From contig DATJPY010000022.1 in assembly GCA_035506135.1 (NCBI GenBank), positions 40,110-104,109 on the forward strand: a stretch of 64,000 bases of DNA, given 5' to 3'. Below, one piece after another: positions 54,301 through 60,427 of the stretch; positions within the stretch are counted from its first letter, which is position 1, and the number at the start of each line of letters is the position of its first letter. The notes below the pieces were generated by a model. That model did no database searches, was not told where the DNA came from, and saw only the letters and a program-made list of their open reading frames with translations. The translations under genes and the position numbers were made by a program. The stretch comes from Myxococcota bacterium. GTDB taxonomy: Bacteria > Myxococcota_A > UBA9160 > PR03.

Positions 54301-54567
54301 ATGACCGGGCACGACTGGCTGATCGTCATCTCGGTGGCGGCGGCGGGGATCACCATGGCCGCGGGTGCGGTAGGAGCCGCAATCGGGGAGAGTCGCATCG
54401 GAGCGGCCGCCCTGGACGCGCTCGCTCGCCAGCCCGATGCTTCGTCTTCCATCACGCGGACGCTCTTCGTGAGCCTCGCCATGGTGGAGTCGACGGCGAT
54501 CTTCTGTCTCGTCGTGGCGCTGATCCTGCTCTTCGCCAACCCGTTCACGACCGCGGCCACGGGCTAG
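54301..54567 (+). CDS. atpE: ATPase c subunit (N-type/F-type rotor ring), 88 aa
   Basis: ATG after AGGAAGGG. Two-helix hairpin with ARQP loop. Ion-site motif ..AMVESTAIF.. plus E30 in helix 1. Confidence 0.9.
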   Translation: MTGHDWLIVISVAAAGITMAAGAVGAAIGESRIGAAALDALARQPDASSSITRTLFVSLAMVESTAIFCLVVALILLFANPFTTAATG

Positions 54568-54576
54568 TGCGCGGCG

Positions 54577-55311
54577 GTGTCGCCGAGCTGGGCCACATTC
54601 TTGTTCGAAGCCGCGAACTTCCTTCTCCTTGCGGCGCTGCTCGGCTGGCTCTTCTTCCGGCCGGTGCGGGATGCGCTCGAGCGGCGTCGGGCTGCCCTGG
54701 AGACGGAGGAGCGTGAAGCGGCCGAGAAGCGCTCTGAGGCGGAGCGCACGTTGGCCGAGGCGACGGCGCGGCGCCGAGCGCTCGAGACCTCGCTCGCCGA
54801 CCTGCGGGAGCGCGCTCTCCGTGAAGCGGAGGACGAGCGAGCGCGGTTGATCGCGGCGGCGCGGGAGCAGGCGCAACGAGAGCGCGAGACCTTCAAGGCG
54901 GAGCTGGTGGCCCTCCGGCTGGATCAGGCGCACGCGATCGCCCTGGACGCCGCAGCTGCCGCGCGCGAGATCGTCGTGGGCCTGCTCGAACGGATCGACG
55001 CGCCTGGACTGGAGGATGCGCTCCTCGCGACCGTGCGCCGCCAGATCACCGAGCTGGCTGCAGGCGGCCCGCTCGGCCCCCTGATCGTGGAGGCGGCGGC
55101 GGGGCTCGCTCCCGAAGCCCTCGCCGCCCTCGCCGACGCCGCGAAGGTTTCCGCCGCCGAGGTGACTCAGCGATTCGTCCCCAGCCTCGTAGCCGGGCTC
55201 CGCGTCCTGACGACGCGAGGTCTCGTCGATGCGTCTGCCGTCGGCCTCGCTGCCCAAGCCGAGCGCGCGCTCGTCATCGAGCTCGAGACGGAGGAATCGG
55301 AGCATGGCTGA
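54577..55311 (+). CDS. atpF: ATPase b subunit with extended C-terminal region, 244 aa
   Basis: GTG start. N-terminal TM (FLFEAANFLLLAALLGWLFF), long Ala/Glu/Arg coiled coil, extra ~90-aa tail. Confidence 0.8.
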   Translation: MSPSWATFLFEAANFLLLAALLGWLFFRPVRDALERRRAALETEEREAAEKRSEAERTLAEATARRRALETSLADLRERALREAEDERARLIAAAREQAQRERETFKAELVALRLDQAHAIALDAAAAAREIVVGLLERIDAPGLEDALLATVRRQITELAAGGPLGPLIVEAAAGLAPEALAALADAAKVSAAEVTQRFVPSLVAGLRVLTTRGLVDASAVGLAAQAERALVIELETEESEHG

Positions 55312-56812
55312 AGAGTCGGCCGCGAATCGGTTGGCTCGGGCCGCCCGCCGGATCGATCTCGATGCGGCGCTGCGACCCCGCGGCGTCGTCCGGAGCGCCG
55401 GGGACGGCGTGGCGTTCGTCGCGGGTCTGGAGCGCGTGGCCCACGAGGAACTCGTCTGCTTCGACTCCGGTGCGCTCGGCATCGCCTTCGACCTCCGCAT
55501 CGACGGGACGGGGATCCTGCTCCTCTCCGGCGCCGAGCGGGTTCACGCCGGCGAGGGGGTCGTCGGACTCGGACGGCTGCCCGAGCTGCCTGTAGGACCC
55601 GCCTCACTGGGTCGAGTCTTCGACCCGCTCGGATCCCCCCTCGACGATGCGGGACCGCTGCCGGAAGAACCGCGGCTTCCGCTCTTCCGCGCGGCGCCGG
55701 AGCTGGCCGAACGAAAGGGCGTCGATCAGCCACTGTGGACCGGCGTCCTCGCGATCGACGCCGCGATCCCGATCGGGCGCGGACAACGCGAGCTCGTCGT
55801 GGGAGATCGCAACGTTGGCAAGACGGCGCTCGTCGAAGATGCGATCGTGGCGCAGAAGCGGGGGGACGTCTCCTGCGTGTATGTCCTCATCGGTCAGGCC
55901 CGATCGCGCGTCCTCGCTCTCCGCGAAACGCTGCTCCGCGCCGGGGCCCTGGAGAACACTGCGATCGTGGCGGCGGACGCGTCCATGCCCCCCGGAATGC
56001 GATATCTCGCACCGTATGCCGGAGCCTCGGTCGCAGAATGGTTCCGCGACCAGGGACGCGACGCGCTCGTCGTCTACGACGACCTGACGAAGCACGCCGA
56101 TGCCTACCGCGAGCTGAGTCTGCTCCTCGGGCGTCCTCCCGGGCGGGAAGCGTTTCCGGGGGACGTCTTCTACATCCATGCGGAGCTGCTCGAACGCGCG
56201 GCGGCACGTGACGCAGCCGCGGGCGGGGGATCCGTCACGGCGCTCCCGATCGTCGAGACGACCGAGAGCGACATCGCCGCTTACATTCCCACGAATGCCA
56301 TTTCCATCACCGACGGCCAGATCTACCTCGACACCGCCCGCTTCGCGCGCAACGAGCGTCCGGCCGTGGACATCGGGCGCAGCGTCTCGCGGATCGGAGG
56401 CGCTGCGCAACCCGTGCCGATGCGCCTCGCCGCACGCAACCTGCGCGTCCTCCACGCCCGCTTCGAGGAGCTCGAGTCCCTCTCGCGAGTCGGCCTCGAG
56501 CTCGAGGAGGGGGTCGAGCGCGAAATCGCGCGGGGCCGACTGCTGCGGGCGTTGCTCCGCCAGGGGCGGCTCTCGCCCCGCGGCATCGCCGAGCAGGTCG
56601 TGACGGTGCTGGCCGTGAGCTCCGGCTGGCTCGACGGGCTCGCGCCCGAGGACGCCCCCGCCTTCGTCGAGAGTCTCGCCGCCCGGAGCCGCTCCGAAGA
56701 GCGGGATCTGATGGAAAGTCTCGAGCGCGGAACGCTTCCCGACGACAGCTCGCTCGCCCCACTGCGGCGGCTCTGCGAGGGCATGCGCGGGATATCGGAG
56801 GCCCCGCCGTGA
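55304..56812 (+). CDS. atpA: ATPase alpha subunit, 502 aa
   Basis: ATG at 55304 (8-nt overlap with b). Walker [10 protein letters not shown], ..[10 protein letters not shown].., ..[15 protein letters not shown]... Confidence 0.9.
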
Positions 56813-59045: not shown

Positions 59046-59463
59046 GGAGATGCTTCGCCTCGTGATCCGAACACCGCGCGAGGTCGCGTTGGACGTCGCC
59101 GTGCGCTCGCTGCGCGTGGCCTCGGACAGCGGGCAGGTCGGGCTGCACCCCGGATGCGAGCCGGCAGTGCTCGCCGTGGAGCCGGGCCTCGCTCTGGCCT
59201 GGACGCGGGAGGGCCTGCGCTTCGTCGCAACCGCAGGTGGCGTCCTGCGCTGCGACGGCCGCGTCGCAACACTGCTCTCGCCCATCGCGGCGGCTGGTGA
59301 CGAGGCGCAAAGCGTGCGGACTCGGCTCGAAGAGGGTCTCGCAGCCCCGGGCACTGCGGGGGATCTGCGCCGGGCCATCGAGCGGCTCGAGGCCGGCCTG
59401 CTCCGCGAGCTGCGCCACCCTCGCCGCCGGTCGAGCACTCTGCCGCCGGAGACCATGGGATGA
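59038..59463 (+). CDS. atpC: ATPase epsilon subunit, 141 aa
   Basis: GTG start with an 8-nt overlap with beta. N-terminal beta-sandwich pattern (..[11 protein letters not shown].., ..[12 protein letters not shown]..) and a helical tail. Confidence 0.75.
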
Positions 59464-59753
59464 GCGGGGCCTCGCCCCCCAACGGGCGTCCCGATGCACG
59501 TCGCTCCCTGGAGCGCGACGTGAGCCGCTACGCGCGCCGCGAGCCCTCCGGGGCGACGTTTTGGCGTTCGCTCTCCCTGCTCGGCACGGTCGGCTGGTCG
59601 ATCTCGATTCCCGCGGTGCTCGGAGCGTGGCTCGGACATCGCCTCGACGTCCGCTTCGAGACGGGAGTGCACTTCACCCTGATCCTGCTCACCCTGGGCG
59701 TAATCATCGGAAGCGTCGTGGTCTGGCGCGTGCTCCGCAGCCATCAGGAGTGA
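59460..59753 (+). CDS. atpQ: AtpQ-like (ATPase_gene1/AtpI-related) small membrane protein of N-ATPase operons, 97 aa
   Basis: ..FWRSLSLLGTVGWSISIPAVLGAWLGHRLD..FTLILLTLGVIIG.. two-TM pattern of the putative F0F1-ATPase-subunit family. 4-nt overlap with epsilon. Confidence 0.7.
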   Translation: MSGASPPNGRPDARRSLERDVSRYARREPSGATFWRSLSLLGTVGWSISIPAVLGAWLGHRLDVRFETGVHFTLILLTLGVIIGSVVVWRVLRSHQE

Positions 59754-59761
59754 CGACGGGA

Positions 59762-60427
59762 ATGCAGGTCTTCGGAGAGTCGGTCTGGCTTCATCTCGGC
59801 CCGGTCCCGCTCACGGGGACGATCCTCACCTCCTTCGTGATCACCGCGGTGCTGGTCTCCTCCGCGCTCGGCCTGCGTTGGTGCGTTCGCGAGCGGCCGC
59901 GCGGAACGCTCGCCGCTCTCGCCTTCCTCACCGTCGAGGAGCTGGACCGACTGGTGCGCGACGTCGCCGGACGATCCGAGCCGGGGCTCCTCACGCTGGC
60001 GGGGACACTCTTCCTCTTCATCGCCGCCTGCAACCTCTCCGGCCAGCTCCCGGGCGTGCGGCCGCCGACGGCGAGCCTCGCCACCACCTCTGCCCTGGCC
60101 ATCGTCGTGTTCTGCGCGGTGCCTGTTGCGGGCGTCCGTGCACGCGGAGTGCGCGACTATCTGATGAACTACTTCCGCCCCAATCCTCTCCTCGCGCCTC
60201 TGCACATCATCTCGGAGCTCTCGCGCACCCTCGCCCTTTCCGTTCGGCTGTTCGGGAACATGATGTCGGGCCACCTCGTCGTCGCCCTGCTCGTGGCCCT
60301 CACGGGCTTCCTGGTGCCGATGCCGCTCATGGCTCTCGACGTCCTGATCGGTCTGCTGCAGGCCTACATCTTCGCAGTGCTCGCCACGGTCTACGTCGGC
60401 GCGGCGATTCGCGTCGGAGAGACCTGA
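59762..60427 (+). CDS. atpB: ATPase a subunit, 221 aa
   Basis: ATG at 59762. Essential-Arg helix ..LALSVRLFGNMMSGH.. and ..LLQAYIFAVLATVY... Confidence 0.9.
   Translation: MQVFGESVWLHLGPVPLTGTILTSFVITAVLVSSALGLRWCVRERPRGTLAALAFLTVEELDRLVRDVAGRSEPGLLTLAGTLFLFIAACNLSGQLPGVRPPTASLATTSALAIVVFCAVPVAGVRARGVRDYLMNYFRPNPLLAPLHIISELSRTLALSVRLFGNMMSGHLVVALLVALTGFLVPMPLMALDVLIGLLQAYIFAVLATVYVGAAIRVGET

Follow-up and report, generated by a model that had tools for sequence, protein, structure and literature searches.

The plus strand of the 64-kilobase (kb) stretch of DNA analysed here, the window, carries at 54301-60427 eight uninterrupted, translationally coupled open reading frames (ORFs) for the subunits of a rotary ATPase in the order c-b-alpha-gamma-beta-epsilon-AtpQ-a. 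We regard the cluster as very probably an intact N-type ("alternate F1Fo") ATPase operon of an uncultured bacterium from a wetland, to which metagenome-assembled genomes (MAGs) labelled Myxococcota are most closely related, and as a member of a sub-lineage in which the gene order is rotated and AtpR is absent. When the coordinates were translated, each ORF fell in the expected subunit family of Pfam and NCBIfam, and the gene lengths and junctions (from c to a +9, -8, -4, -4, -8, -4 and +8 nucleotides, nt) listed in an earlier note on this DNA were reproduced exactly. An independent gene call on a public ENA contig with an identical beta protein yields the same eight products.

The operon is opened by atpE for the c subunit (54301-54567, 88 amino acids, aa; PF00137 at E 2e-16, 117 bits with NF009998 at a cutoff of 116, 110 bits with alt_F1F0_F0_C), which is followed by atpF(N) for a long b subunit (54577-55311, 244 aa; PF00430) and by atpA for alpha (55304-56812, 502 aa; PF00006 and PF00306), with the Walker A motif GDRNVGKT at residue 167. 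The atpG gene for gamma (56809-57660, 283 aa; PF00231 at E 1e-26) overlaps by 4 nt with both alpha and beta. Beta itself (atpD, 57657-59045, 462 aa) contains Walker A GGAGVGKT at residue 152, GERSRE at 183 and EELSGED at 384. Epsilon (atpC, 59038-59463, 141 aa) reaches 26.8 bits with PF02823 at a cutoff of 27 and is matched by NCBIfam epsilon models, alt_F1F0_F1_eps among them; its position is kept in all relatives whose loci were mapped by tblastn. Next comes atpQ (59460-59753, 97 aa), encoding a small membrane protein of the AtpQ/AtpZ type with two hydrophobic helices (PF09527 at E 1.6e-12; TIGR02230 50.4 bits, cutoff 46.7), and the last gene, atpB for the a subunit (59762-60427, 221 aa; PF00119 at E 2e-42, NF009955 212 bits, altF1_A 187 bits), contains the essential Arg162 (60245-60247) within LSVRLFGNMMSGH.

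The catalytic and coupling motifs, namely Walker A of beta and alpha, GERSRE, Arg162 of a and Glu30 and Glu63 of c, are intact. Pairwise comparison with three relatives of the rotated clade gave ratios of non-synonymous to synonymous substitution rates (dN/dS) of 0.09-0.47 for all eight genes, with 0.16-0.38 for AtpQ, and all eight are under purifying selection. The G+C content is about 71% across the window and the composition is unbroken at the operon. No sigma-70-like promoter was found for the operon, terminator-like sites are not more frequent than in shuffled sequence, and neither Rfam families nor tRNAs were found in the 64-kb window.

The c-subunit ion site and the long b subunit

The window c subunit was aligned with those of relatives, of E. 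coli and of Ilyobacter tartaricus. In the I. tartaricus numbering, Glu30 (54388-54390) stands at Gln/Glu32, Glu63 (54487-54489), Ser64 and Thr65 stand at Glu65, Ser66 and Thr67, and Phe68 stands at Tyr70, which makes this a two-carboxylate site. In the solved Na+ rings the ion ligands are Glu32, the carbonyl of Val63, Glu65, Ser66 and a water molecule that Thr67 keeps in place, and Tyr70 just hydrogen-bonds Glu65 (PMC3692424); this Tyr was termed non-ligating and stabilising (PMC2359735). Coupling to Na+ by the window c-ring is plausible, with all direct ligands present and the stabilising Tyr replaced by Phe, and the Na+-type c subunit proposed in the earlier note is only partly shown. The pattern GES...VESTAIF is common to the entire clade of Planctomycetota-type and rotated operons, cyanobacterial N-types carry ESTAIY, and Burkholderia and Cereibacter carry ETMAIY. 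The N-type ring of B. pseudomallei was found experimentally to be H+-specific and the enzyme is accepted as an N-ATPase despite its ETMxxY motif (PMC5376962). The sister clade, which has AtpR, carries an identical c ion site, so nothing suggests that the loss of AtpR altered specificity, and the suggestion that it could have done so, made in the earlier note, is without support. Helix 1 of the window c subunit has the motif AxGxAxGxS. Small c-rings carry GxGxGxGxG in this helix, and the window motif may hint at a wide ring.

The operon had been described as lacking delta. A six-frame search with hidden Markov models (HMMs) found no free-standing delta/OSCP in the 64-kb window, which is the part of the genome covered by our searches for delta and AtpR, nor in any N-type locus, and the eight genes are packed too tightly to accommodate atpH within the operon. 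However, a part of delta is there in another form. The profile of the long-b family matches b subunits in the PDB over positions 7-161 (E 6e-22) and, in addition, over about positions 115-233, the C-terminal domains of delta from bacteria and of OSCP from mitochondria (E 7e-11 to 1e-3). Rotated-clade b proteins alone align by hhalign with residues 91-168 of E. coli delta (E 4.6e-4), and PF00213 is matched singly by 9 of the 21 members of the b family. In the window protein, an N-terminal part with the membrane anchor and the coiled coil of b (about residues 7-131) precedes a delta/OSCP C-terminal-like domain (about 150-235) which carries the motif AGLRVLTTRGLVDAS at 206. The C-terminal half of b is homologous to the C-terminal domain of delta, so part of delta is present as a fusion, and "delta-less" is best read as having neither a separate delta nor its N-terminal domain. 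The fusion of b and delta was already described for N-ATPases (PMC2881411); the earlier note missed it, as it missed the published precedents for rotation and for loci without AtpR. In the N operon of Burkholderia pyrrocinia (locus L082), RefSeq calls the long b gene at 11418-12170 "F0F1 ATP synthase subunit delta" because of this fusion.

Phylogeny, gene order and AtpR

Relatives were collected by scanning one genome for each prokaryotic species with the beta protein, which gave 80 loci to which the eight proteins were mapped by tblastn. The closest, with 73-81% beta identity, are MAGs labelled Myxococcota, Myxococcales or "delta proteobacterium", together with a few that have evidently inconsistent labels; the taxonomic label of the clade is taken from the names that submitters gave to these related MAGs. 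The rotated order c-b-alpha-gamma-beta-epsilon-Q-a was found in all 14 of the closest genome loci, 12 complete (L001, L003, L004, L006-L011, L013, L059 and L070) and two partial (L002 and L005). In the next tier, with beta identity of at most 69%, every locus has the classic order beta-epsilon-Q-(R)-a-c-b-alpha-gamma; Planctomycetota make up most of this tier, the cultured Roseiconus nitratireducens and Aporhodopirellula aestuarii among them, and some Acidobacteriota also occur in it. The same division was seen in a metagenome scan. About 30 contigs with beta identity of at least 70% have gamma directly upstream of beta, and the gap from Q to a is 12-38 nt in every one of them, whereas all classic-order contigs are at or below 69%. 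Furthermore, well over 100 clusters of the protein database (at 90% identity) share at least 68% identity with the window beta, most of them above 70%; all are uncultured and named just "F0F1 ATP synthase subunit beta". The order atpE-F-A-G-D-C-Q-B with its break between a and c, as read in the earlier note, holds for the whole rotated clade.

We built neighbour-joining trees (100 bootstraps) with the annotated plasmid operons of Picosynechococcus PCC 7002, Acaryochloris marina, Burkholderia pyrrocinia and Cereibacter sphaeroides as N-type references and the E. coli operon as F-type reference. In the concatenated alpha and beta tree (62 loci, 959 columns), the three F-types included were split from all loci of N order and rotated order at 93%, and the named N references formed one clade with the Planctomycetota and rotated groups at 100%. 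Within it the rotated group is supported at 100% and the Planctomycetota-type group is its sister at 89%. With metagenome contigs added, the beta tree gave a clade of 45 members at 100%, in which gamma lies directly upstream of beta in 36 and the classic order occurs in none; rotated and Planctomycetota-type operons are united in this tree at 100%. The alpha tree, likewise extended, gave a clade of 27 at 100% without a classic-order member, the F-types being separate at 94%. As the rotated clade is nested in the N-ATPases and is sister to classic-order operons of the Planctomycetota type, its gene order is a derived trait of one monophyletic lineage within the N-ATPases and not an intermediate between F and N. 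The earlier note had left both options, a distinct lineage or an intermediate arrangement, and of these the trees and the survey of relatives favour the distinct lineage; alpha and beta of the window cluster with N-ATPases and not inside F-type clades.

Between atpQ and atpB, classic-order relatives have a gap of about 300 nt that contains an ORF of about 90 aa; its product has three hydrophobic helices as well as conserved Arg residues. In the window this gap measures 8 nt. The HMMs built from proteins at this position find the gene in about 50 classic-order loci. Neither in the six frames of the 64-kb window nor in any rotated locus was an AtpR-like ORF found with HMMs from the relatives and from classic AtpR, which confirms the absence of AtpR reported before. 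In operons of the Planctomycetota type, the proteins at the AtpR position (e.g. L012 10094-10390 and L030 10058-10405) miss the thresholds of PF12966 and TIGR03165, and hhalign against the annotated proteins of the four reference operons identifies same-position proteins as AtpR homologues (E 2.5e-5 and 1.1e-6). Since AtpR in these operons can be recognised only when profiles are compared with profiles, surveys based on domains would count them as AtpR-less. Locus L070 was considered as an intermediate that is rotated and yet keeps AtpR, and was rejected: its weak match (E 0.62) comes from an error-rich assembly in which helix 1 of the a subunit was read out of frame. The AtpR gene is also missing from classic-order operons with 27-86 nt between atpQ and atpB, both in genomes (L014, L023, L026, L051, L065 and L069) and in metagenome contigs (L111, L112, L121 and L132). 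These loci are scattered in the tree, and therefore several independent losses of AtpR have to be assumed. N-type loci without atpR were already noted by Koumandou & Kossida 2014 (PMC4154653). While AtpR was proposed to be necessary for c-ring assembly (PMC2881411), it would be dispensable for assembling the two-Glu c-ring in the rotated lineage.

A presence/absence cassette in a wetland population

The window sequence is present in wetland metagenomes, and there the operon is part of a 7.2-kb cassette (53258-60492) that is replaced by 39 nt in an empty allele. The cassette consists of a non-coding leader, a cytidylate-kinase-like gene (PF13189; 53565-54194, plus strand) just upstream of atpE, and the eight ATPase genes; beside other rotated operons the cytidylate-kinase-like gene was not found. 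The empty site was recovered in run X4 as a Logan contig of 1781 nt with a depth of 16.9, which joins 53257 to 60493 via the 39 nt, and in run X5 as a Logan contig of 781 nt with a depth of 6.8 and an identical join via the same 39 nt. At this join a SnoaL-like gene lies directly before a gene for a transporter of the major facilitator superfamily (MFS). The flanks of the empty allele share more than 99% identity with the window, and the stop codon of the SnoaL-like gene is intact in both alleles. The filled junctions are spanned by contigs of X1 and X3 at depths of about 16-17, and the operon-bearing contigs of X4 have a depth of about 7, below that of the empty allele in the same run. At the ends of the cassette we found no terminal direct or inverted repeats beyond chance-level GC-rich matches. 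The cassette is a presence/absence polymorphism within one wetland population.

A deletion was found in a relative from the rotated clade on a 113-kb metagenome contig (L106, 7531-10701), where residues 1-68 of b are fused in frame to residues 12-455 of beta; alpha and gamma are deleted, and c, epsilon, Q and a are retained. Both this deletion and the empty-site allele mark the operon as accessory, and by the empty-site allele it was gained or lost recently.

No flanking genes are shared between the window and the rotated loci or among those loci, and the cluster thus lies in unrelated neighbourhoods; therefore, there is no extra conserved partner gene standing in for AtpR or delta. Upstream of the rotated operons no non-coding conservation was found beyond a GGAGG ribosome-binding site. 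The gene directly downstream of the cassette (60498-62333, plus strand) codes for an MFS transporter of 611 aa with a UBP-type zinc finger at its C-terminus (PF07690 and PF02148), an unusual fusion. Elsewhere in the window, the G+C content falls to 0.66-0.68 at 38000-43500, against about 0.71, around a COX3-like ORF on the minus strand (39520-40875). Other genes in the window encode an asparagine synthase (5048-6988), an ELM1-like protein (7001-8122), and thiolase-like, AMP-binding and enoyl-CoA hydratase proteins.

Interpretation and comparison with known systems

The closest known systems are the N operons of the Planctomycetota type, such as those of Roseiconus nitratireducens (L030) and Aporhodopirellula aestuarii (L049), whose beta is 65-69% and whose c subunit is 76-84% identical to that of the window. 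They resemble the window in the c ion site, which is identical, in AtpQ, in the long b with its delta C-terminal-like domain and in the lack of a separate delta, but differ from it in the classic order and, mostly, in an AtpR-like gene of about 90 aa between Q and a. Rhodopirellula baltica has been listed as a carrier of an N-ATPase (PMC4154653). The core N-ATPases (Picosynechococcus PCC 7002 pAQ7, Acaryochloris pREB4 and Methanosarcina) and that of Burkholderia, which has a c17 ring, belong to the same larger clade at 100%. They share with the window the subunit set, the b-delta fusion, AtpQ and a two-Glu c subunit, and differ in about 50% beta identity, the presence of AtpR, the classic order and the c motif ESTAIY or ETMAIY. 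In contrast, the canonical F operon atpIBEFHAGDC (E. coli, L084), although colinear in its block c-b-...-alpha-gamma-beta-epsilon and homologous in its core subunits, has a separate delta, AtpI instead of AtpQ and the a gene first and not last, and its alpha and beta lie on the opposite side of the 93-94% split.

Rotation as such has a published precedent. The N operon of Persephonella marina (Aquificae), urf2(atpR)-atpBEFAGDCI or R-B-E-F-A-G-D-C-Q, was the sole rotated exception in the study of Dibrova 2010 (PMC2881411); it, too, is circularly rotated relative to the N order, but its break lies between Q and R, that of the window between a and c, and it keeps AtpR. The absence of atpR is shared by N-like loci of Nitrosococcus halophilus and Bacteroides fragilis (PMC4154653), which belong to unrelated lineages and have the classic or a split order. 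Operon rotation and N loci without AtpR are thus already known, and what remains is variation in order and accessory content at the level of a lineage. We found no paper describing a rotated, AtpR-less clade of Myxococcota. The ProAD study (2025) detects N-types by the order beta-epsilon-X-X-a-c-(b-delta)-alpha-gamma and re-annotated outliers by hand (PMC11738941), and its supplement mentions neither Myxococcota nor the re-annotated orders.

In the 2010 definition (PMC2881411), N-ATPases cluster separately, lack delta, have a long b and AtpQ, carry AtpR "in every operon", keep the order atpDCQRBEFAG and occur as a second enzyme; a c subunit with Glu in both helices and the Na+ motif ESTxxY is a further feature. 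The window agrees with this definition in the clustering of alpha and beta, in the lack of atpH in the operon, in the long delta-like b and in atpQ. Its c subunit has both Glu residues, Ser and Thr, and Phe in place of the Tyr of ESTxxY. Several points weigh against the assignment to N-type. The operon departs from the definition in two features, having neither atpR nor the order atpDCQRBEFAG, and with the "alternate F1F0" models (TIGR03305, TIGR03324, TIGR03322, TIGR03321, TIGR03323, TIGR03306 and TIGR03166) all subunits score below the cutoffs (beta 564 of 752, alpha 510 of 750 and c 110 of 131 bits). Moreover, our trees were made by neighbour joining and not by maximum likelihood, with only a handful of canonical F-type references, and no RNA run carrying the beta gene was found. 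As to the cutoffs, that for beta is also missed by the N-type beta of Burkholderia (612 bits) and by that of Roseiconus (579 bits), and only cyanobacterial and Thermodesulfobacteriota-type betas pass it; these models therefore cover a core subgroup only. In relative terms the NCBIfam scores lean to the N side. The window beta scores 564 bits with alt_F1F0_F1_bet and 524 bits with atpD, compared to 602 and 818 bits for a canonical F beta. For alpha, NF009884 (591 bits, cutoff 554) exceeds the alternate F1F0 model (510 bits) and atpA (508 bits), and it is the top model for the window alpha and the Burkholderia N-type alpha alike. The main reading of the earlier note, an N-type operon without AtpR and in rotated order, is supported by the trees, the survey of relatives and the searches for AtpR and delta.

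The encoded enzyme would have an alpha3-beta3-gamma-epsilon head, a c-ring with two carboxylates, an a subunit with the essential Arg, and AtpQ, and in its peripheral stalk the long b with its delta C-terminal-like domain would take the place of a separate delta. By analogy with other N-ATPases, it would most probably serve as an accessory ATP-driven pump for Na+ or H+ and not as the main ATP synthase; the roles of pump and second enzyme are taken from the literature on N-ATPases (PMC2881411, PMC5376962). In its lineage the ancestral order atpD-C-Q-R-B-E-F-A-G has been rotated to atpE-F-A-G-D-C-Q-B, with loss of the gene at the AtpR position; the rotation swaps the blocks [beta-epsilon-Q-(R)-a] and [c-b-alpha-gamma]. 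The simplest route would be a tandem duplication of the operon after which the outer halves were lost, with an equivalent block swap as the alternative; a remnant of a duplicated operon was not found. The new junction of gamma and beta is a 4-nt overlap, so translational coupling has been re-established there.

It is very unlikely that the operon encodes a primary F-type ATP synthase in an unusual gene order. Such a view could draw on the block c-b-alpha-gamma-beta-epsilon, which is colinear with canonical F operons, on scores of beta and alpha above the cutoffs of TIGR01039 (atpD) and TIGR00962 (atpA), and on a genus of Chloroflexota for which ProAD gives an N-type as the only rotary ATPase (PMC11738941). 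However, alpha and beta nest in the N clade and not with F-types, AtpQ is present, and delta is found solely as the C-terminal domain fused to b. An operon-lacking allele coexists in the population, in X4 even at a higher depth than the filled one, so the operon is dispensable, and a relative has lost alpha and gamma. The same dispensability, the deletion in that relative and the proposed need for AtpR in c-ring assembly (PMC2881411) would fit a decaying operon, non-functional since AtpR was lost, to which we give very little credence: its eight ORFs are intact with their catalytic motifs, their dN/dS values against three relatives speak for selection, the eight-gene set is kept in 14 genomes and dozens of contigs, and several classic-order lineages that lost AtpR independently keep intact operons. 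An evolutionary intermediate between the F-type and N-type arrangements, which the rotational relation to both orders might suggest, is highly improbable, as the rotated clade (100%) is terminal and does not lie at the base of the N-ATPases, and its sister and all outgroups within the N-ATPases are classic; the rotation is thus late and lineage-specific, and the present topology refutes an intermediate. That assembly or binning fused two half-operons can practically be dismissed despite the metagenome origin of the window, given the repetition of the order in 14 independent assemblies (some with contigs above 1 Mb) and about 30 metagenome contigs, the agreement of the independent ENA contig, the Logan contigs of separate runs that span the junctions, and the 4-nt overlap of gamma and beta.

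Beyond the assignment to a rotated, AtpR-less lineage of N-ATPases, it is conceivable, though we consider it rather doubtful, that this clade is a functionally distinct subtype for which AtpR, so far regarded as the tell-tale subunit of N-ATPases, is dispensable in assembling a two-carboxylate c-ring and which forms a self-sufficient mobile "ion-pump cassette", gained and lost in Myxococcota populations according to local ionic conditions. The general picture of how rotary ATPases work is unchanged by our data. A fixed gene order and atpR are the usual marks by which N-ATPases are recognised, and detection by such rules would call the whole rotated clade "F-type without delta". The clade is also a natural experiment on AtpR, in which the gene is gone and the two-Glu c subunit is unchanged, and this argues against an obligatory partnership of the AtpR Arg and the c Glu in assembly. 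Furthermore, the occurrence of both a filled and an empty allele in one wetland population offers a handle on the conditions that select for an N-ATPase.

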